Source: a phage
Assembly: GCA_024911895.1 (NCBI GenBank)
Contig: GCA_024911895.1_3948.1
DNA length: 64,000 nucleotides
Strand: one strand, 5' to 3'
A program made the position numbers and the translations under genes. Positions 8,821-47,125 of the stretch are shown piece by piece (the first letter of the stretch is position 1; the number at the start of each line of letters is the position of its first letter). The notes beneath the pieces are model-generated. The model was not told where the DNA came from. It ran no database searches and worked only from the letters and a program-made list of their open reading frames with translations.

Positions 8821-9090
8821 TTACTTCCTCGTTTTAAGAACTGCTAAGATTTCTTTAGAATCTGGTAAGAACCATGTGTAGTGATTCTCTTTGATTTCTG
8901 GATGAGTGTCAACCTTTATTTTGCACTCTTTACCAACATGCTTAAGCTGTGCTGTGACACCTTGCATAAAGATATGACACATCACATTATCCATAATGGT
9001 TGGTATGAAGTCAATTCGCATATAAGTTTCTTTTGGTCGTGGTAGTAGTAAGTAACCTTCTACATAGAAAGTATCTTCGTTCTCTGTCAT
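8821..9090 (-). CDS. hypothetical protein (89 aa)
   Basis: ORF in an operon-like array. Confidence 0.45.
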   Translation of the reverse strand: MTENEDTFYVEGYLLLPRPKETYMRIDFIPTIMDNVMCHIFMQGVTAQLKHVGKECKIKVDTHPEIKENHYTWFLPDSKEILAVLKTRK

Positions 9091-9356
9091 TGCTGTTTGT
9101 TCCCTAATAAAATCATGTCAATAAGGTTATTAGCTTTTATAGTGCACTGGTAAAAACCATCACGATAAAACTCAAGGGCTGCTGCCACATCACTACCAGT
9201 ATTGCCTTTGACAGTGAATCTTGATTCTTCTTGAGTGTACTTGTCACTCTCACTTACTCGGGAGTTTTTGAATGTACTGTTCACTTTGTTCGTTGAACAC
9301 CCTGACATAATTATCAGTAACACAAACATTATAAAACTCTGGCTTAGTTTTTTCAT
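9087..9356 (-). CDS. lipoprotein (89-aa precursor); candidate o-spanin or superinfection-exclusion lipoprotein
   Basis: signal peptide MKKLSQSFIMFVLLIIMSGC with lipobox MSG-C; start lies inside the 3' end of 9250..9597 in another frame; AGAGG RBS. Confidence 0.45.
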   Translation of the reverse strand: MKKLSQSFIMFVLLIIMSGCSTNKVNSTFKNSRVSESDKYTQEESRFTVKGNTGSDVAAALEFYRDGFYQCTIKANNLIDMILLGNKQQ

Positions 9357-9597
9357 ATGTTAGTACCTCTTTTGTATGCTTATTCTTAGCAAGCACATCT
9401 TTCAAATCATTTTTGTAATTAGTGCTGAGTGTGGCTAAACCTTCCTGATAAGCATCTTTAGCAACACTTATCAGCTTCTCATTGTTTAACTCAGCTTCAG
9501 CAACTTGGTAGTCTCTATAAGAGTATCCTCCCCAGACACCTGCCCCAACTAAGAAAACAATTATGAAAGTAGCTTGGCAGAACTCTTTAAATGTCAT
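9250..9597 (-). CDS. type-II membrane protein with helical periplasmic domain; candidate i-spanin (115 aa)
   Basis: N-terminal TM ATFIIVFLVGAGVWGG; 107-nt out-of-frame overlap with the downstream lipoprotein gene. Confidence 0.4.
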   Translation of the reverse strand: MTFKEFCQATFIIVFLVGAGVWGGYSYRDYQVAEAELNNEKLISVAKDAYQEGLATLSTNYKNDLKDVLAKNKHTKEVLTYEKTKPEFYNVCVTDNYVRVFNEQSEQYIQKLPSK

Positions 9598-37679: not shown

Positions 37680-37936
37680 GTAAGCCTCTTTTAAGTAACT
37701 ATTAAGTTTTAATCTTTTATCTTAACGTATTCTATACGTTATACTTTAAAGCTTTTTAAAAGCTATTAAATAATCTTTTAAGAGTTTTAAAGTATCTGTA
37801 TAGTTAAACTGTTAAGTAACCTTTTAAGTAAAAACCCACTTCGCAAAGATTAACACCTTGTCAAGTACATTGTCAACTTGCTTTTTATAATTTTTTGCAG
37901 TAATGTATGAGGTTAATGATTTTAGAGGGAGTAAAA
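37680..37936. promoter_or_regulatory. AT-rich divergent intergenic region between the leftward and rightward gene blocks, carrying copies of motifs from the 1-1000 region (TCTGTATAG, CTGTTAAG, CTTTTAAG)
   Basis: read directly; GAGGGAG RBS before the polymerase ATG at 37937. Confidence 0.5.
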
Positions 37937-40636
37937 ATGGAAAACGTAGATTTTAAAAACTTACATTTAGTTGGTGATACAGAAACTGATGGTTTACTCC
38001 TTGAGTTCACTAAAGTTCACGTAATGGCTTTCGCAGATTATAAATCTGACGATGAAGAGCCACCTGTATGGGTCTTTACAGATGAGCCTATCCTCGGTCA
38101 CAAGTACACTAAGTACATTAAGGGTGGTTTACGTGAAGGTGTTGAGTTTGCGTTAAAGGCAAAACGACTTTGTATCCATAACGGCCTCGGTTATGACTGG
38201 TGGGTCTTCAATCACATTGCACCGGATTTATGGAACTTTGATAATCCAAAATGTAAGCCGTGGAGTAATTTCTTTCAGGATTCTCTTATCCAGTCTCGTG
38301 TTCAGTGGATGGATAGACCAACTCCAAAGGGTTATAAAGGTGCTCATGGTTTGGCTGCATGGGGTGCTCGTGTTGGTGTTCGTAAACCAGAGATTGAACA
38401 TTGGGGTGTGTGGAATGCAGAAATCTTCACTCGTGTTGTAGAAGATATCCGTATTAACGCCAAAACTAAACGGGCACTTGATAATGAATATCTCAAGCTT
38501 AAGAAGTGTGGTATAGACACTTATGAAACTTACATGCGAGCTAAAGAAACATCTTTCTGGATGAGTCAACAGGCTATCAATGGCTGGAAAGCTGATAAAG
38601 AGCTTATGGAGTTCCATGTAAAGGAACTTGACAAGTTGACTAATGAGCTTGCTTCAGAGGTTGAACCACATCTACCTCCAACTATTAAGACCAAAGGTAA
38701 AGTTACTGGAGAAGAATTTGCAAGAGCTTGGAATGAGTATGTTGAAACATTTGGTCATGCAGATGGACTGAAGAGAATCACCAAGTATCCTAAGACAAAG
38801 TATCGTCAGCAGGTACGTAACGGTGAGATGCAGACATATGAAATCAAGCCATTTGGTAAGCCAACTACAAAGATTTTTAACATTGAAAAGAGAAATTGCT
38901 ATACACCAACCAACTCTGTAACTGGTGAAGAGTACAAGGAAGGTTTTGTAGCAATGAAGGATGCTCGTGCAATTTGCAATGAGTTGAATGCAAAGATTGG
39001 TAAGAAATGCAAAGACTGGAAGCCAGTAAAAACAGTTAAAACTGTGAAGTACTATAACAGTCATGTTGTTAACCACTTTGAGCTTGAGTCAAGTCGCTAC
39101 ACAGGTTTGATTGATGCACCATATACACCAATTGAGTTCGAAGTTTCTCGTATGACTCAGGTAGCAGTTGTTAAAGACTACTTGAAATCAGTTGGTTGGA
39201 TTCCAGATGACTGGAACTACAAGAAAGACTCAGATGGTCGTCCTGTTAAGGTTTGTCGTTTCAAAGACAACAAAAAGATGATTACCAAGCATCCTAAATG
39301 GCAGGAGATGGTTGAACGGTGTGGTTTGAGTTATGTTGAACATGAAGGTGTCCAGTACATTGAGCATAACTGGTCTGTGAAGAAGTACACAGATTTGCTT
39401 GAGCCTTGCTTAATCCGTACTTCACCAAAACTTACTGAATCATCTTATGATACGATTGAAGGTGAGCTTGGACAGAAGATTGCTAAGTACTATACTTTGA
39501 TGCACCGACGCAGAACTATTGAGAACTCAAAGGATGATGAAAAAGGTTGGTTGAACCAGATTCGTCCTGATGGTCGACTTAGTGCTGGTGCAATGGTGTT
39601 TGGTACTTCAACTGGACGTATGACACAATATGGTATTGTAAACGTACCGTCTGGTGCTGCTGTCTATGGAGCACCTATGAGGGAGGTATGGACTTGTGAA
39701 GATGGTACAGATATCATCTCCGTAGACCAAAACTCAGCACAGCTAGTTCTCCTTTGTAACTTTATGGGTGATGAAGACTTCACTAAAGCGGTAACTGAGG
39801 GTAAAGAGTCAGTAGAGTTCACTAAGCAAGAGGATGGCAGATACTACTGTAAGCATCTTGATAAGTATCTTAACCCAGAAACTGACAAGTATCTTCGTTA
39901 TGATGCTGAGAATGACCTCTATGAAGTCTATACAGGGACTGATGCACATACATTGAACAGTATTTACTTTGGTCTTAACAAAGAAGAGGATATTATTCTT
40001 TGTAGGGAGACACAGGATGAGGAACTTCTTCACGAGATTACAAAAGGTCGTAAGAAGAGCAAAAATGGCATCTACGCCCTGTTATTTGGAGCCGGAGATG
40101 AGAAGTTTGCGAAAACTATCAAGGCATCATCTACGGAAGAGGGTGCGTTGACTAAACAAACTTACTTTGTGCGTCTACCTAAGATTAAAAAACTGCTTGA
40201 TAGATTAGAGGAAGACTTCAAAGCAACTAAGAAAGCACTTGAAGAGGTTTTCGGAAAAACTTCTGCAATTGCCAAAGGTGGCTATATCAAAGTTGCTGGA
40301 GCGTGGTTATGGTGTAAATCTCCACATAAGTTATTGAATTACACACTTATGGGCAGTGAGGCGCAGGTGCAGAATGAGGGTATTAACTTGGCTAACAGAG
40401 AGTTAACAGAGCGCAAGCTTACAGTTCTAAATGGTAGGAAGCCTGCTATTGGTGCTAGGTGGGTCTGTAGTTACCACGATGAGGTCTCTTTAGAGGTTCC
40501 AACCAAAGATGTACCTGATGTTAAGGAGATTATTGATAGAATGTATGGTCAAGCATCAAAAAATCTTGGATTAAAGAGTAAGACGCTTGTTACAGGCACT
40601 GGTAAGGTAGGTAAGACATGGTACGCCGTACACTAA
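37937..40636 (+). CDS. DNA polymerase, family A (with 3'-5' exonuclease domain)
   Basis: exo motif LVGDTETDGL; motif A-like ISVDQNSAQLVLL; motif B RKKSKNGIYALLFGAG; motif C VCSYHDEVSLE. Confidence 0.8.
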   Translation: MENVDFKNLHLVGDTETDGLLLEFTKVHVMAFADYKSDDEEPPVWVFTDEPILGHKYTKYIKGGLREGVEFALKAKRLCIHNGLGYDWWVFNHIAPDLWNFDNPKCKPWSNFFQDSLIQSRVQWMDRPTPKGYKGAHGLAAWGARVGVRKPEIEHWGVWNAEIFTRVVEDIRINAKTKRALDNEYLKLKKCGIDTYETYMRAKETSFWMSQQAINGWKADKELMEFHVKELDKLTNELASEVEPHLPPTIKTKGKVTGEEFARAWNEYVETFGHADGLKRITKYPKTKYRQQVRNGEMQTYEIKPFGKPTTKIFNIEKRNCYTPTNSVTGEEYKEGFVAMKDARAICNELNAKIGKKCKDWKPVKTVKTVKYYNSHVVNHFELESSRYTGLIDAPYTPIEFEVSRMTQVAVVKDYLKSVGWIPDDWNYKKDSDGRPVKVCRFKDNKKMITKHPKWQEMVERCGLSYVEHEGVQYIEHNWSVKKYTDLLEPCLIRTSPKLTESSYDTIEGELGQKIAKYYTLMHRRRTIENSKDDEKGWLNQIRPDGRLSAGAMVFGTSTGRMTQYGIVNVPSGAAVYGAPMREVWTCEDGTDIISVDQNSAQLVLLCNFMGDEDFTKAVTEGKESVEFTKQEDGRYYCKHLDKYLNPETDKYLRYDAENDLYEVYTGTDAHTLNSIYFGLNKEEDIILCRETQDEELLHEITKGRKKSKNGIYALLFGAGDEKFAKTIKASSTEEGALTKQTYFVRLPKIKKLLDRLEEDFKATKKALEEVFGKTSAIAKGGYIKVAGAWLWCKSPHKLLNYTLMGSEAQVQNEGINLANRELTERKLTVLNGRKPAIGARWVCSYHDEVSLEVPTKDVPDVKEIIDRMYGQASKNLGLKSKTLVTGTGKVGKTWYAVH

Positions 40637-41121
40637 CACTTCAAGATTACAAGGATAATTTTATTTATGACCCCGACAAAGGGGTCTTCTACAACAAGTA
40701 TGACAGGAATAGACAAGCTAAAGCTGGACAGATTGCAGGAGGAAGTGATACTTATGGTTACAAAGTACTTAAATTCAAAGGTGTCGTAATAAAAGTTCAT
40801 CACCTCGTTTGGTGGTTCGAACATGGTTACAAACCCACTAAGATGATAGACCACATTGATGGTAACAGAAGTAATAATCATATCTCTAATCTTAGGGAGG
40901 CTGATAAGTATGGAAACGCCCAAAACAGGGTTAAGCAGACAGCTAACAAGTCAGGTTACAAGGGTGTGCATTATTTTAAAGACTGCAATAAATGGAGGGC
41001 TGCTATAACATGCAGAGGTAAAAGGACATCACTTGGTTTATTTGACACACCAGAAGAAGCCCATAAAGCTTACTGTGAAGCTGCTGTAAAACTCCACGGA
41101 GAGTTTGCAAAACTAAGTTGA
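40618..41121 (+). CDS. HNH homing endonuclease with AP2 domain
   Basis: IDHIDGNRSNNHISNLREA; AP2-like GYKGVHY...GLFDTPEEAHKAY...HGEFA; overlaps the polymerase 3' end. Confidence 0.7.
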   Translation: MVRRTLTLQDYKDNFIYDPDKGVFYNKYDRNRQAKAGQIAGGSDTYGYKVLKFKGVVIKVHHLVWWFEHGYKPTKMIDHIDGNRSNNHISNLREADKYGNAQNRVKQTANKSGYKGVHYFKDCNKWRAAITCRGKRTSLGLFDTPEEAHKAYCEAAVKLHGEFAKLS

Positions 41122-41172
41122 CAATGTGCTCAGGGAAGAGTACCTTATACTGTATCTTGTATAGGAGGTTAT

Positions 41173-41385
41173 ATGACACTTGCAGACGTTATTCAGCAAC
41201 TTCACGACAATTGCTACACTCCAGAGATGATTCAGGAGATGCTTATTGTAGTGATGCCTAGTAAGTTCGTAAAAGGTTTTAATCATGATTCTTTAAGGTC
41301 TGCGCATATCCTTATTGTCGATGGTAAGATTGCAAGAGACCGCACAGGAGTCCTTAAGGGTGCACGTATTAGTATTGACCTCTGA
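41173..41385 (+). CDS. hypothetical protein (70 aa)
   Basis: ORF with GGAGG RBS. Confidence 0.5.
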   Translation: MTLADVIQQLHDNCYTPEMIQEMLIVVMPSKFVKGFNHDSLRSAHILIVDGKIARDRTGVLKGARISIDL

Positions 41386-41402
41386 GTATTGGGGATACCA
41401 AA

Positions 41403-41558
41403 ATGAAACGCAAAGTTAAGTTTTTTAATTTATATGGAAGAGTTGGTAAAGGTTTTGACTGGCAACTGTTACGTTCAAATGTTAAAAGCAATGAATTAGC
41501 ACCACTTATCATTCATTATCGACGTACATACAGAGAAGTAGAGCATCGTGAACAGTAA
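41403..41558 (+). CDS. small basic protein (51 aa), below the ORF-track cutoff
   Basis: own translation: MKRKVKFFNLYGRVGKGFDWQLLRSNVKSNELAPLIIHYRRTYREVEHREQ; GGGGA upstream. Confidence 0.4.
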   Translation: MKRKVKFFNLYGRVGKGFDWQLLRSNVKSNELAPLIIHYRRTYREVEHREQ

Positions 41559-41571
41559 TAGGAGAAGTGTT

Positions 41572-41808
41572 ATGTGGAAAGTAGTAATTGCGCTTGGTGT
41601 TATTTTTCTATCTGGCTGCAACCCTTCTTATGAAGATAAAAATGCTTCTTACAGCCTCCCACCAGAGATGCAAGATTGCAGAGTATACAAGTTACATGGT
41701 GATGCTATAAGCAGAGATATTGTTGTTGTAAGATGTCCAAATTCTCAAACAACAACATCTTATAGCTATGGCAAAAATGGTCAATCACATACCACGGTTA
41801 TTGAGTGA
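41572..41808 (+). CDS. outer-membrane-type lipoprotein (78-aa precursor); start at the ATG at 41572 rather than the GTG at 41548
   Basis: MWKVVIALGVIFLSGC with lipobox LSG-C; AGGAGA RBS 7 nt upstream; two further Cys in the mature part. Confidence 0.55.
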   Translation: MWKVVIALGVIFLSGCNPSYEDKNASYSLPPEMQDCRVYKLHGDAISRDIVVVRCPNSQTTTSYSYGKNGQSHTTVIE

Positions 41809-41818
41809 GGTTTTCACG

Positions 41819-42025
41819 ATGGAAGTATTAGTAAACTACATCTATCGTTATGATGTTGTTCACTCCACTACAACCGTAGCTCAACGTAATCCAATCGTCC
41901 CACGAGAAGGTGAGTTGGTTCGCATTGAGGGTTGGACTTACACTGTGGAAAGCATCATTCATAAGTTTGATGTTGCTGGTGATGTTCAAGTTATCGACGT
42001 AGAGATTGGTGATAAGAGAAAATGA
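41819..42025 (+). CDS. hypothetical protein (68 aa); start at the ATG at 41819
   Basis: GTGAGG RBS; the upstream extension in the ORF track would overlap the lipoprotein gene. Confidence 0.45.
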   Translation: MEVLVNYIYRYDVVHSTTTVAQRNPIVPREGELVRIEGWTYTVESIIHKFDVAGDVQVIDVEIGDKRK

Positions 42026-42213
42026 CTGTAGAAGATAAATTTAAGAACGCAGTTCTTACAGAAGATGGTGAGCTTGAAACATTCATTCTTCGTGTTGATG
42101 GTAAACTATTCCGGTGTCGTTGTGGGTCAAACTGTTTCCATAAACCAGATAAAAATGACTTAGAGCTTTACGCATGTAATGCTTGCAACACTTGGTATCA
42201 CTCAGAGGAATAA
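42022..42213 (+). CDS. small zinc-ribbon protein (63 aa)
   Basis: CRCGSNC ... CNACNTW cysteine pairs. Confidence 0.5.
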   Translation: MTVEDKFKNAVLTEDGELETFILRVDGKLFRCRCGSNCFHKPDKNDLELYACNACNTWYHSEE

Positions 42214-42214
42214 A

Positions 42215-43315
42215 ATGACAATTCTGTACAAACAAAATAAAGACGGCTCTTTTAACGTCTGGTCATGCGTTGCTGTAGGTGACAAAGTTATTACAACCTA
42301 CGGTAAAGAAAATGGCAAGATGATGTTTGAAGAGTATACAGCAGAACCTAAAAACATCGGTAAAAAGAATGAGCGTAACGCTGAACAGCAAGCTCTCTTT
42401 GAAGTTGCTGCTAAGTATAAAAAGCAAGTTGACCGTAAAGGGTATGCTTACACAAAAGAGTCTGCACAGAATACTGAGAAGGTAGGTGTACAGCTTGCTC
42501 ATGATGCTGCAAAGGTTAGTCATGCAAAGTATCTGAAGTTCCCTGCTGATGCTCAACCAAAACTTGATGGTGTCCGTTGTAGAATTTCAAGAGATGCTGA
42601 TTCAGTTAGTTTTACGGCTTATTCTCGTGAGAATACTGTTTACAACGTTCCAGCAGAACTAATCCCAGATTTGCTTTTGTTGCTTAAATTACATCCGCAA
42701 GTTGAGGACTTTGATGGTGAGATTTATGCTCATGGTTGGGACTTAGAAGATATTGTCTCTATGATTAAGAATGCTGACAATCCAGACCGTCACCTTCTTA
42801 AGTTCTACTGGTATGATATCTGTGACAATTCAAAAACTTGGCCTGAGCGTCGTGAAGTTATTGATAACTCACCCATTATTGAGCTTGGTGATACCTGTAG
42901 AGTTGTTCCTGTACAGACTATCCGTGTCAACTCTTGGGAAGAGTTCGATGAAGCTCATGATAAGTGGGTTGAAGCTAAGTTTGAAGGTGCAATGTACCGT
43001 TCAATCTCTGAAGACTCCTTCTATGAGTGTTGTCACCGTTCATACTTCTTGATTAAGCACAAGAAGATGCACACTGAAGAGTTTAAAGTGACTGGTGTAA
43101 AGACCGATAAACGTGGTCATGGCAAGTTCGTTGTAGAGACTCTTCCTAACGTCTTTGTAGATGTCTCATGGAAAACTACTCATGAGAAGAAACAGTATCT
43201 TGCTGAGCATCCTGAAGAGTTTATCGGTAAACCTTTAACGGTTCAGTTCCAGAAGATGACTCGTAAGGGGTCTTTACAGTTCCCTGTGGGGTTAGTTATA
43301 CGAGATTATGAATAA
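42215..43315 (+). CDS. ATP-dependent DNA ligase; start at the ATG at 42215
   Basis: adenylation motif I KLDGVRC; GAGGAA RBS; 366 aa. Confidence 0.7.
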   Translation: MTILYKQNKDGSFNVWSCVAVGDKVITTYGKENGKMMFEEYTAEPKNIGKKNERNAEQQALFEVAAKYKKQVDRKGYAYTKESAQNTEKVGVQLAHDAAKVSHAKYLKFPADAQPKLDGVRCRISRDADSVSFTAYSRENTVYNVPAELIPDLLLLLKLHPQVEDFDGEIYAHGWDLEDIVSMIKNADNPDRHLLKFYWYDICDNSKTWPERREVIDNSPIIELGDTCRVVPVQTIRVNSWEEFDEAHDKWVEAKFEGAMYRSISEDSFYECCHRSYFLIKHKKMHTEEFKVTGVKTDKRGHGKFVVETLPNVFVDVSWKTTHEKKQYLAEHPEEFIGKPLTVQFQKMTRKGSLQFPVGLVIRDYE

Positions 43316-43321
43316 AAGTTG

Positions 43322-43349
43322 TTGACATAGATAATTTGGTGAGTATACT
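43322..43349 (+). promoter_or_regulatory. sigma70-like promoter TTGACA-16bp-TATACT in the 280-bp intergenic region upstream of the secreted-protein gene
   Basis: -35 at 43322..43327, -10 at 43344..43349; a second TTGACA at ~43525. Confidence 0.5.
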
Positions 43350-43597
43350 GAGCAGCATAAACCAACAGGTACTCACCAGCATCACTTAAGAATCTTATAA
43401 GAGGGTTTTTAAGTAATGTATTGCACGGTAAGGTGATGTGAAGTCTGGTTTTGCATGGTGTGGTTTGGTATGGAAGGATGGCAGTAGCCTTATAAAAAAT
43501 CTGCCAAATAAGCTATAAAGTCTGTTGACAAGTCAGGTGTTATAGCTTATTTTTATACTCAATGTAATACAAAATTTAATATAACTTTGAGGTCATT

Positions 43598-43981
43598 ATG
43601 AAAAAGATTTTATTAGCTGCTGCAATGGTTATGACGATGAATTTACCAGTCAATGCAACAGAACTTCCAAATGTGGACTTATCAGGTGTTCCAGAAGACA
43701 CTTGTCAGATTGTAAAAGGTGTTGCCCTGACTAATGGTGAGCTACTTAAACCAATCTCTGAAGAGTCTTTAACAGAGATGACCGATAAGGTAACTGACTA
43801 TCAGTATCGTGTTCTTGCAGAGTATTTCCTGCAATCTGCAAATATTAAAGAGAAGCACCCTGATGATATTGATGTACAGGCTATGCTCAATCATCGTATT
43901 CAGTTTAAAGAAGATTTGATGCAAAAAGCTATGTATGGTGTTGAGTATTTCTTAGAAAACAGAAGCTGCACAGGTATTTGA
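43598..43981 (+). CDS. secreted/periplasmic protein (127 aa) with cleavable signal peptide
   Basis: MKKILLAAAMVMTMNLPVNA signal peptide; own promoter region upstream. Confidence 0.55.
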   Translation: MKKILLAAAMVMTMNLPVNATELPNVDLSGVPEDTCQIVKGVALTNGELLKPISEESLTEMTDKVTDYQYRVLAEYFLQSANIKEKHPDDIDVQAMLNHRIQFKEDLMQKAMYGVEYFLENRSCTGI

Positions 43982-43982
43982 T

Positions 43983-44195
43983 ATGGCTCTTAAAAAGTTA
44001 CATCCCAGAAGCGGTTATGGTAAGATAATTGATGATACAGATGGCTTTACAGTCTTTACAGTTATCTGTCAAGATGATTCACAGATTGAAAAGGCTCTTG
44101 ATGATTATCTTAATGATGAACGTGAAAAGGTCAGAGCTACAAACATAGACTCATTAATTGATACTTCACGTAAACGGAAGAAGAAAGATGAATGA
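43983..44195 (+). CDS. hypothetical protein (70 aa)
   Basis: ORF. Confidence 0.45.
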   Translation: MALKKLHPRSGYGKIIDDTDGFTVFTVICQDDSQIEKALDDYLNDEREKVRATNIDSLIDTSRKRKKKDE

Positions 44196-44487
44196 GGTTT
44201 TTGACCCTTATGCTCCACAAGATGATTGGGAGGCTGATAGAGAGGCTGAAATGGAGAGTTATATTTGTCCAATGGATGTAGACGAAATGAGAGACTTCGT
44301 TGCACATCGTTTTAAGAGAGAGATTAAATCCAGAGGTCTTTCTCAAGAGCAAGTCGCTAAAATTTGTGGTATCTCTCAAGCTCGTGTATCCAACATAATC
44401 CACCTCACTGGGAATGTCTCTCTTGAGTATATGTTGGAAGTGTGTGAAAAATTTGGTGTTAATTTCAATTTAAGGTTGGCAGATTAA
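44188..44487 (+). CDS. helix-turn-helix (XRE-like) DNA-binding protein; start at the ATG at 44188
   Basis: HTH segment LSQEQVAKICGISQARVSNII; GGAAGAAGAAAG upstream. Confidence 0.5.
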   Translation: MNEVFDPYAPQDDWEADREAEMESYICPMDVDEMRDFVAHRFKREIKSRGLSQEQVAKICGISQARVSNIIHLTGNVSLEYMLEVCEKFGVNFNLRLAD

Positions 44488-44488
44488 T

Positions 44489-44848
44489 ATGAAACGTGAA
44501 AACATTATCCACTCTGAAAACTTCGCATTAGGCTTTTATGGTGCACCTACTCACCTTGAAAAGTACTACGGTGTAGAAATTCTTTCCAATCTCATTATGG
44601 CTTACAAAGATGGTAAGATTAAGCATACTGAGAAGAAACGTGTCATGGGTTATATGGCTGTAGGTTCAGCAATCTCAAACATTAAGCTGGAAACAACTAG
44701 CAGCCAGATTGTGAAAGACCACTTCATCAAAGAACTTTACCACAATCTTGATGGTGTAGATGTTCAGGCTGTTTGGCTAGATGTTGATGGTCACAACTAC
44801 ACAAGTTTCGTTTTCAAAAACGATGACATTAAGTGTCTGTTCCCATAA
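44489..44848 (+). CDS. hypothetical protein (119 aa)
   Basis: ORF. Confidence 0.5.
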   Translation: MKRENIIHSENFALGFYGAPTHLEKYYGVEILSNLIMAYKDGKIKHTEKKRVMGYMAVGSAISNIKLETTSSQIVKDHFIKELYHNLDGVDVQAVWLDVDGHNYTSFVFKNDDIKCLFP

Positions 44849-44861
44849 TAGGTGATTAACG

Positions 44862-45377
44862 ATGATTGATATCTACTTACAAGATGCTCATGCAGACTTC
44901 CTTAAAGAGATGCTTAAAAAGTTTATGGCTTCACAGTATGAGAATGAAGCATCTTTTAAAATAGTGACATGTGGTGACGAAGCTGGTTTTGTTGAGATTG
45001 AACATGAAGGTACTGGAAAGACTGTTTGTAAGTTACCTGATAGTATGTTCTCTAACACGTTCTTAACAAAGACTATTATAAATGTTAAGCTTGTGCCTCA
45101 GATTGAAACATACTCTGGTACAGATTACCCTAAAGGTTTTAAGTCACTGATGAAGTACTTCTTAGATGACTTTGTGAGTAATCTTCTGCGAGAGGTAAAA
45201 GAAAGTCGTACAGTGTTAACTGTAGAGAACATCGGAGGAACTGTCAGGGTTACTTCTGACTGTTTTGTGATGAGCCTCTTCGACTTCGTTCCTAAGAACT
45301 TTGATGGTATTCTGGATGAAGAAGATGACTGTGTAGACTTTATATTGGTTCTTGAGCCAGTTTTTGAGGTTAAATAA
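44862..45377 (+). CDS. hypothetical protein (171 aa)
   Basis: ORF. Confidence 0.5.
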   Translation: MIDIYLQDAHADFLKEMLKKFMASQYENEASFKIVTCGDEAGFVEIEHEGTGKTVCKLPDSMFSNTFLTKTIINVKLVPQIETYSGTDYPKGFKSLMKYFLDDFVSNLLREVKESRTVLTVENIGGTVRVTSDCFVMSLFDFVPKNFDGILDEEDDCVDFILVLEPVFEVK

Positions 45378-45638
45378 ATGAAAATTGAACACTGCTATGA
45401 GTCTGATGGAACACCTATCCGATGTCCACATTGTGGGTGTACAGACTTACAAGGTGAGGTAAGTGAAATAGTCAACGGTCATATTGCTGAAGAAAGTACA
45501 AGGTGTACAGGGTGTAATGAAATTATCGCTTTCTGGGCTTATGGTTCATACCAACCATCTCCACATTTTATCTACCATCGTAGTAAAGTCGTGAAGAGTG
45601 TCATTAACTGGTTCATTAAGAAAGGGTTTACAAAATGA
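45378..45638 (+). CDS. small zinc-ribbon protein (86 aa)
   Basis: CPHCGC ... CTGCNE. Confidence 0.5.
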   Translation: MKIEHCYESDGTPIRCPHCGCTDLQGEVSEIVNGHIAEESTRCTGCNEIIAFWAYGSYQPSPHFIYHRSKVVKSVINWFIKKGFTK

Positions 45639-46180
45639 TTAAGCTAATATTTGCAAGTGGTGAAAACGGTGAATTTGGTACACCTACTGGTATGCCGTGG
45701 CCTCGACATAAACAGGATATGCAAGAGTTTAAGAGACTCACTAAAAATAACTTAGTAGTCATGGGTAATGAGACTTTTAAGACTCTGGGTAGTAAACCTT
45801 TACCAGAACGTGCAAACCTTATCTTAACAAACTCTGTACCATATTTAGGCATAGACTTTGACAAAGATGAGATAATGTATGCTAAGGCCACTAAAGAGTC
45901 ATTTGGAGCATTTTTGAAGTATCTTGATAGCTCTATTGATGAAGATGTCTTTGTAATTGGTGGTGCAGGTGTCCTTGTAAATGCTTTACCATATGCTGAT
46001 GTAGTGTTCCATACAGTTTTCCATAAAGTTACTGAAGAGGCCACTGTGCATTTACCTTTTGAAAACTTCTTTGAGAAGTTGTATGATAGTCGTGTATTTG
46101 CAAAGGTGCAGTCAAGACCCTCCGATGATGGTAAAGCAACCTTTGAGATTTATGTTCCACAAGTAAAAGGACACTTTTGA
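45635..46180 (+). CDS. frd: dihydrofolate reductase
   Basis: N-terminal MIKLIFASGENGEFG..GMPWP...LVVMGNETFKTL, typical DHFR signature; 181 aa; directly upstream of thymidylate synthase. Confidence 0.75.
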   Translation: MIKLIFASGENGEFGTPTGMPWPRHKQDMQEFKRLTKNNLVVMGNETFKTLGSKPLPERANLILTNSVPYLGIDFDKDEIMYAKATKESFGAFLKYLDSSIDEDVFVIGGAGVLVNALPYADVVFHTVFHKVTEEATVHLPFENFFEKLYDSRVFAKVQSRPSDDGKATFEIYVPQVKGHF

Positions 46181-46181
46181 T

Positions 46182-47081
46182 ATGTCACAAGCTGATTTGA
46201 GTTACAAAAATATCATGAACCATGTTTTATCCGTTGGTGAACTGCGTACTACACGAACTGGAGATGTTATCTCTGCATTTGCTCCACCACAGTTTCGCTT
46301 TGATATGCGAACTGGTTTCCCGCTCTTAACATCTAAACAGGTGTTTACACGGCAAGTTATCGGAGAAGCTTTATGGTTCCTGAATGGTGAGAATAAACTT
46401 GGTGAACTCCGTTACCGTACTTGGGGTGAAAATGATGGAGAACGCTGGACTATCTGGTCAGATGATTTTAAACGCTGGTTAAGCTCTAACTATTCTTCTG
46501 AACAAGATTGGTTAGAGGATGCAGGTGGGAGAATCTACGGAGTTCAGTGGAGAAACTTTGAAGGTCATAATGGTTGTGTTGTAGACCAACTAGAGACCTT
46601 AGTAGCAAAGATGAAGGGTGATATCACAGACCGTTACATGCTTGTTAATGCTTGGAATGCAGCAGATATTGCAGCAAACTCAATGGCTTTAGCACCTTGT
46701 CATGTTCTGTTTCAGATTTATATCACTAATGAAGGGGAAGTAGATTTGCAATGGTATCAGCGTTCTGTAGACACCTTTTTAGGACTTCCATTTAACATTG
46801 CATCTTACGGCTTTATTCTGGAAGTTCTTTGTAAGATGACTGGGTACACTCCACGATACTTGATAGGTGTCTTTGGAGATACTCAAATTTATCAGAACCA
46901 TATGAAGCAGGTTTATGAACTGATGAATAATGAAGAGTTCCATGCGCCTACTTTTGAGATTGGTGTACAGCTTAACACTCTAAGTGACCTTAAACATCTT
47001 ACCGCAAGTGATTTTATTGGTGGTATTAGCAACTACAAACATGCAGGAAAGATTGAAGCACCTTTATCAGTGGGTAAGTAA
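46182..47081 (+). CDS. thyA: thymidylate synthase (ThyA type)
   Basis: active-site LAPCHVLFQIY and QRSVDTFLGLPFNIASYGFIL motifs; 299 aa. Confidence 0.8.
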   Translation: MSQADLSYKNIMNHVLSVGELRTTRTGDVISAFAPPQFRFDMRTGFPLLTSKQVFTRQVIGEALWFLNGENKLGELRYRTWGENDGERWTIWSDDFKRWLSSNYSSEQDWLEDAGGRIYGVQWRNFEGHNGCVVDQLETLVAKMKGDITDRYMLVNAWNAADIAANSMALAPCHVLFQIYITNEGEVDLQWYQRSVDTFLGLPFNIASYGFILEVLCKMTGYTPRYLIGVFGDTQIYQNHMKQVYELMNNEEFHAPTFEIGVQLNTLSDLKHLTASDFIGGISNYKHAGKIEAPLSVGK

Positions 47082-47082
47082 A

Positions 47083-47125
47083 AACAAAAAGGCTCCTTTT
47101 TACGGGAGCCTTAAAATTTTATTTT
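47083..47125. terminator. hairpin (AAGGCTCC..GGAGCCTT) between the convergent blocks; probable bidirectional terminator
   Basis: stem 47089..47096 / 47105..47112, flanked by A-run and T-run. Confidence 0.5.

Follow-up and report, generated by a model that had tools for sequence, protein, structure and literature searches.

A small lipoprotein of the PHROG 902 family in a Felix O1-type phage: a dispensable gene with a putative role in the envelope of the infected cell

We have identified a small gene, 41572..41808 (+), in the window (the whole analysed stretch of 64,000 nucleotides of phage DNA; GenBank assembly GCA_024911895.1, contig GCA_024911895.1_3948.1), whose product, a lipoprotein precursor of 78 amino acids (aa), probably changes the cell envelope during infection. 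Databases have contained the gene since publication of the Felix O1 genome, and its family is already catalogued as PHROG 902 (phrog_902), a family with no function assigned. The best guess we can offer for its role, and a tentative one, is superinfection exclusion. The features discussed below are collected in Table 1.

Table 1 Features of the window that bear on the lipoprotein gene
Feature	Position	Strand	Remarks
o-spanin candidate	9087..9356	-	MKKLSQSFIMFVLLIIMSG-C...; phrog_4180 (family with no function assigned); weakly matches Rz-like spanin phrog_456
i-spanin, Rz-like	9250..9597	-	phrog_1152, E=9e-42
DNA polymerase	37907..40636	+	Upstream flank of the lipoprotein gene
Two-gene accessory cassette (51-aa ORF and lipoprotein gene)	41386..41818	+	~430 bp; boundaries ±~10 bp
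51-aa basic ORF	41403..41558	+	Upstream neighbour; phrog_2381, E=6.6e-20
Ribosome-binding site AGGAGA	41560..41565	+	6 nt 5' of the ATG; direct sequence reading
Lipoprotein precursor CDS, 78 aa	41572..41808	+	ORF listing, phrog_902 match, synteny, dN/dS
Signal peptide, predicted signal-peptidase-II type	41572..41616	+	n-region MWK, h-region VVIALGVIFL, lipobox L-S-G before Cys16
Mature lipoprotein, 63 aa including lipid Cys	41617..41805	+	Alignments, AlphaFold2 model, phrog_902 match
Cys36 codon to Cys55 codon	41677..41736	+	Codons 41677-41679 and 41734-41736; both Cys invariant in 76 sequences
68-aa ORF	41819..42025	+	Downstream neighbour
ATP-dependent ligase	42179..43315	+	Downstream flank of the lipoprotein gene

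The sequence-only reading had described a lipoprotein signal with Asn at +2, a mature part of about 62 aa with two further cysteines, and a ribosome-binding site of the gene's own, all within a block of replication genes, and each of these points was recovered here. The precursor starts at the ATG at 41572 and reads MWKVVIALGVIFLSG-C16-N17, with the lipobox LSG directly before Cys16, the predicted residue of lipid attachment (codon 41617-41619), Asn17 at the +2 position (C-N-P in the window protein) and the other cysteines at residues 36 and 55. An alternative start, GTG at 41548, leads to an identical mature lipoprotein. The product carries the features of bacterial-type lipoproteins, namely a positive N-terminus, a hydrophobic stretch in the range of 7-22 residues and a lipobox of the form [LVI][ASTVI][GAS]-C; a six-frame regular-expression scan for a basic N-terminus, hydrophobic stretch and lipobox returned two loci only in the 64 kb, this one and 9087..9356. 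In a comparison of seven Ounavirinae the signal peptide was variable and the mature domain conserved; wherever an estimate of dS was obtained (the values reached above 2), dN/dS of the mature part ranged from 0.04 to 0.29. We therefore consider 41572..41808 a real, conserved gene under strong purifying selection.

The mature part consists of a linker of ~20 residues with an LPPEMQD motif, followed by a small β-sheet domain with the motif VVRCPNSQTTTSYSYGK. An AlphaFold2 model, of moderate confidence only (pLDDT 73), places β-strands at residues 37-42, 49-54, 59-66 and 69-76, and names no partner. Exactly three cysteines are present in 187 of 234 family members, which suggests one cysteine for lipid attachment and one periplasmic disulfide; in the window protein, Cys36 and Cys55 probably form this bond. 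The mature protein would thus be a disulfide-stabilised β-sheet domain of ~50 residues, held in the periplasm on a tether of ~20 residues. Under the +2 rule of enterobacterial lipoproteins, Asn at +2 allows release by the Lol system to the outer membrane and Asp leads to retention in the inner membrane. The predicted destination of the window lipoprotein, from its Asn17, is the outer membrane.

The window belongs to a Felixounavirus (Felix O1-type phage): its region 40600-43400 shows 91-95% nucleotide identity to Felixounavirus genomes including radambza, skuden and Felix O1. The gene corresponds to Felix O1 ORF91 (NP_944949) and occupies the same position in Felixounavirus and Mooglevirus genomes, with synteny seen for Felix O1, radambza, Moogle, Sf15, AYO145A and UAB_Phi87. 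The DNA polymerase and ligase genes flank it within a long rightward run of genes (37907-47081, from polymerase to thymidylate synthase) that stops at a bidirectional terminator (47089-47112). Directly 5' of the gene no convincing sigma-70 promoter of its own was found; the best nearby candidate (9/12, at 41375-41404) was no better than those in shuffled sequence. According to RT-PCR data for Felix O1, the transcript maximum falls at 25 min for ORFs 88-90, 93 and 96 and at 5 min for ORF95, ORF91 being outside the series (PMC3185647).

Some further observations concern this region. An ORF of 127 aa at 43598..43981 (+), the equivalent of Felix O1 ORF87 (phrog_4332), begins with MKKILLAAAMVMTMNLPVNA/TE; by appearance this looks like an ordinary Sec signal peptide, and thus like a second exported protein in the operon, 1.8 kb downstream. 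The gene at 40618..41121 (+), which overlaps the DNA polymerase gene at its 3' end, encodes a homing-type endonuclease with HNH and AP2 domains. In many related phages the match to the query starts only at position 417, and hence the presence of this endonuclease appears variable. Two records under other host names, GU169904 (Staphylococcus phage SA1) and MG065664 (Campylobacter phage A132), contain Felix O1-like sequence with 87-91% identity in the lipoprotein region and are probably mixed or mislabelled assemblies.

The affiliation with PHROG 902 was supported both by the full-length protein (E=1.3e-16) and by the mature part alone (E=9.9e-11), and distant family members likewise match phrog_902. 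By tblastn, 586-590 phage records carry the family, and a profile search of 1.84 billion representative proteins yielded 656 clusters (50% identity) at E<=1e-3; all 150 of the profile matches listed are short (61-137 aa). Among the carriers are Felix-like phages with Escherichia, Salmonella, Shigella or Citrobacter as host, and T5-like Vibrio phages (Jesfedecavirus and ~290 oyster-associated Vibrio phages). From Acinetobacter come the T4-like Acj61, Saclayvirus and several phages of ~44-55 kb, and the jumbo phages are represented by Asteriusvirus and Eneladusvirus. The family is also present in Aeromonas phages and in Klebsiella, Enterobacter and Pectobacterium phages of ~145-155 kb. Members from myo- and siphophages of Escherichia, Salmonella, Vibrio, Aeromonas, Acinetobacter, Erwinia and Klebsiella share 30-56% identity. 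In an alignment of 76 sequences no variation was seen at C16, P30, C36, C55 or P56. The consensus is LPxELKDCKxY ... VVRCPNSxTSTxY..GK, to which many members add V-I-D-G; neither the cysteine pair nor the VVRCPNS..GK core varies among phages from at least eight genera of hosts.

No characterised relative emerged from the searches made. Pfam and NCBIfam scans gave no significant family, the matches being lipid-attachment sites or noise (TrbK, E=0.03, in the signal region). Precomputed tables list PF16225 (DUF4884) on nearly all members at E<=1e-5, whereas a local Pfam-A hmmscan of 76 members did not return it even at E<=10. A PDB sequence search with the family profile produced signal-peptide matches only (FlgP, ApoE and Llp), a structure search of BFVD returned uncharacterised family members only, and the lipoprotein matched none of the PADLOC models. 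In the literature we found nothing on the function of the PHROG 902 family or of Felix O1 ORF91.

The lipobox was found in 234 of the 241 family sequences examined, and the residue at +2 of these 234 members varies (T 47, E 43, S 36, D 31, N 25, G 13 and A 12). Asp thus occupies the +2 position in 31 members (13%), among them members from E. coli, Erwinia and Klebsiella phages that read C-D-A or C-D-G, and for these members inner-membrane retention is predicted. Related proteins would accordingly be anchored to either membrane, which suggests a periplasmic target rather than a single outer-membrane protein.

When neighbourhoods of 6 kb from nine lineages were compared all against all, no second common gene emerged, and on this ground the lipoprotein gene is a stand-alone, horizontally mobile module. 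In every lineage examined it is located among small early ORFs and genes of replication or nucleotide metabolism: between the polymerase and ligase genes in Felix-like phages, between those for an origin-binding protein and a helicase in Vibrio phage D124, upstream of thymidylate synthase in Vibrio phage JSF12, upstream of the replicative helicase in Klebsiella phage KP2025, and beside a DHFR gene in a metagenomic contig of 226 kb. In Acj61 it adjoins the primase gene and is found directly upstream of the annotated spackle gene, an adjacency seen in this one case only.

In the Felixounaviruses the gene is part of an accessory cassette of two genes, the other being the basic 51-aa ORF (phrog_2381) directly upstream, and the two are gained or lost jointly. 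Beside family members of other phage lineages phrog_2381 was not found. In phages HY02 and DE7 an ORF93-like gene is followed within 10 bp by an ORF90-like gene, and the 51-aa ORF and the lipoprotein gene are both cleanly absent. A megablast search with 41173-42213 revealed classes of Felixounavirus records at only 40-57% coverage, making up about one-sixth of the rows in an evenly spaced listing of the matches. Frameshifted copies of the lipoprotein gene occur in metagenomic contigs (P0013 and P0014). The lipoprotein gene is dispensable, and its absence from HY02 and DE7, together with the frameshifted copies, fits a function in competition rather than a core one.

Superinfection exclusion fits this gene because it is early, exported, stand-alone and dispensable, and its family is found mostly in virulent phages. 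The lipoprotein would modify the envelope of an already infected cell in such a way that later phages fail after adsorption, the blocked step being, for example, tail-tip penetration, passage through the peptidoglycan or DNA transfer, and to this end it would bind a periplasmic host component conserved across Gammaproteobacteria. Such a logic would be nearer to that of T4 Imm and Sp than to that of T5 Llp and Cor, which plug a specific receptor. It should be kept in mind that early expression and dispensability are equally compatible with other roles, such as counter-defence, shut-off of the host envelope or control of lysis timing.

The sequence-only reading had put forward exclusion through a block of the phage's own receptor. 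Of this proposal the exclusion logic stands, as outlined above, and the own-receptor part does not. Receptor masking would mean that the lipoprotein, anchored in the outer membrane, inactivates the receptor from its periplasmic face, as Llp does with FhuA and as Cor does in phi80, HK022 and T1, and thereby prevents both superinfection and the loss of progeny on cell debris. The size class and architecture shared with Llp and Cor (lipobox, short linker and two further cysteines) speak for it, together with the outer-membrane sorting predicted from Asn at +2. However, Felix O1 and phages of its type use the LPS core as receptor, which a lipoprotein facing the periplasm cannot mask. Since, in addition, the family is common to phages with unrelated receptors, 13% of its members have Asp at +2 and no receptor-binding gene is located nearby, we regard own-receptor masking as very improbable. 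In comparison with it, a block after adsorption, or another takeover of the envelope through a conserved periplasmic component, is more likely.

The comparison with the known receptor-masking proteins was made with the sequences of T5 Llp and HK022 Cor taken from their genomes. T5 Llp (PDB 8a60, chain B) resembles the window lipoprotein as a protein of a virulent phage whose precursor, of ~77 aa, has a lipobox followed by a short linker, and two cysteines besides that of the lipobox. It is expressed early in infection and is dispensable for plaque formation; the annotation of the T5 record states that it inactivates the FhuA receptor. The cysteines, however, are 47 residues apart in Llp and Cor and 19 in the window lipoprotein, llp is divergent from the receptor-binding gene oad whereas the window gene lies between polymerase and ligase, and the homologues of Llp amount to four closely related clusters against the 656 of PHROG 902. 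A local likeness between KDCKxYYMQ in the family and KDIKCEAYYMQ in Llp is weak. Homology to Llp was rejected: the full-length hhalign probability of 91%, mostly due to the signal peptide, fell to 0.5% (E=0.12, 9 columns) after the signal peptides were trimmed, no Llp chain was present among the structural matches of the lipoprotein model, and the PDB sequence match to 8a60_B covers the signal peptide only.

Cor of HK022, phi80, N15 and T1 (PHROG 1119) is likewise a small phage lipoprotein; it has 77 aa and three cysteines, and its annotation is that of an exclusion factor. The cor gene of HK022 is located 3' of a tail protein gene and annotated as a moron, unlike the window gene in position. 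In the PHROG scan the window lipoprotein gave no match to phrog_1119. Two distant relatives matched this profile at E~1e-3, and these matches vanish when mature sequences are used, while mature Cor keeps 3.8e-26; hhalign aligned the signal peptides only, with 0.2% probability for the mature parts, and homology to Cor was therefore rejected too. One PHROG 902 homologue, EcMJ_513 of Escherichia phage vB_Ec-M-J (Asteriusvirus; OQ718158, L012:2462-2713), is labelled 'Cor superinfection exclusion protein', and the loss of the phrog_1119 match without the signal peptide indicates that the label is a signal-peptide artefact. This corrects a misleading database entry.

Sp and Imm of T4 are early, non-essential envelope proteins which exclude superinfecting phages after adsorption and independently of the receptor. 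Neither of them is a lipoprotein: Sp, which has an ordinary signal peptide, is soluble in the periplasm, and Imm resides in the inner membrane. PHROG and Pfam scans of the window lipoprotein returned neither the Sp nor the Imm family; the likeness is one of logic only, beside the location of the Acj61 member next to spackle. Altogether, no link in sequence or fold was found between the PHROG 902 family and the known exclusion proteins.

A rather different explanation is that the lipoprotein acts for the benefit of the current infection, as an inhibitor of a conserved periplasmic or envelope machine of the host; possible targets include peptidoglycan hydrolases and their activators, sensors of envelope stress, the biogenesis of the outer membrane and envelope-sensing defence systems. 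Phages whose hosts range from Enterobacterales to Acinetobacter, Vibrio and Aeromonas share a strongly conserved core motif, which suggests that the host target is conserved as well, and the mixed predicted membrane sorting would suit one in the periplasm. The early or middle expression context and the occurrence of the family mostly in virulent phages, and rarely in bacterial genomes, are also in line with it. Against these points, neither PADLOC models nor any characterised family gave a match, and the isolates without the gene (again about one-sixth of the Felixounavirus listing) are viable, which means that the benefit must be conditional. We consider such a takeover or counter-defence function a serious rival to exclusion, if on the whole unlikely. 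With similar doubt we would extend the preferred reading to the whole family and view PHROG 902 as a new, receptor-independent type of envelope effector spread across phage groups, in which a disulfide-locked β-domain of ~50 residues, anchored to either membrane, would act on one conserved periplasmic component and bring about broad exclusion or the disabling of an envelope defence, unlike Llp, Cor, Sp and Imm.

A role in lysis deserves attention, as small outer-membrane lipoproteins of phages are most often o-spanins. The sequence-only reading had argued that a spanin was unlikely for want of an adjacent membrane-protein partner, and both statements agree with our data. The neighbouring ORFs, 41403..41558 and 41819..42025, encode small soluble proteins; neither was picked up by the lipobox scan, and no long hydrophobic stretch could be seen by eye. 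In none of the nine lineages does an i-spanin partner accompany the gene. The window has a separate spanin pair at 9087..9597 (-), an i-spanin with an overlapping, out-of-frame lipoprotein ORF, and hence 41572..41808 is not the spanin; with no i-spanin gene overlapping or adjacent to it, its assignment as an o-spanin was rejected. Rz1-type o-spanins are, like PHROG 902 proteins, small phage-encoded outer-membrane lipoproteins with periplasmic cysteines, but the window lipoprotein differs from them by its predicted folded β-sheet domain, early context, dispensability and missing i-spanin partner. One might still think of an unusual o-spanin, a regulator of spanin or holin, or a protein that guards the cell from lysing too early or from without. 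A homologue from Hylemonella weakly matches the Rz-like spanin profile phrog_456 (E=1.7e-5), a match that spans residues 2-55 with the signal peptide included. As the gene is dispensable and the family is encoded in early clusters of replication and nucleotide metabolism, outside lysis cassettes, any of these lysis-related roles seems improbable. Functions beyond exclusion, receptor masking, takeover and lysis account for the remaining probability.

Felix O1-type phages are classic typing phages of Salmonella and are widely used in cocktails for biocontrol and therapy. An accessory gene that changes the envelope could affect the mutual interference of phages in a cocktail, and phages with and without the cassette exist in nature for comparison. 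If the lipoprotein proves to be an exclusion or envelope effector, its family would be new to a kind of system already known, and its mechanism probably new as well. A function established for one member could annotate hundreds of 'hypothetical proteins' across phage families and host genera.

Beyond phage records, a motif scan of one genome per species, covering 185,579 bacterial and archaeal species, detected a single locus, in Hylemonella gracilis; as the scan required an exact 10-residue motif, this count is a lower bound. Related loci in the species genomes were searched with a 21-sequence subset of the family alignment as query. The copy in H. gracilis ATCC 19624 (NZ_AEGR01000062, L011:5956-6234) encodes 92 aa and is localised in a genomic island, beside a truncated Mg-chelatase-like gene. 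PDC-M68A/B, PADLOC candidate defence genes with a resemblance to LmuA/LmuB (Lamassu), follow 2 kb downstream of this copy; it is the single case of a copy in a defence island. Some family copies are found in 'plasmid' records of Acinetobacter baumannii of ~112 kb with phage-like genes of nucleotide metabolism. In one of them, NZ_CP062920 (113 kb; L020:5001-5219), residues 1-45 of the 86 query residues are matched at 84% identity on an annotated ORF of 72 aa. This record is typed as a mobilizable plasmid and carries genes for ribonucleotide reductase, nucleoside triphosphate pyrophosphohydrolase and exonuclease; it may represent a phage-plasmid.
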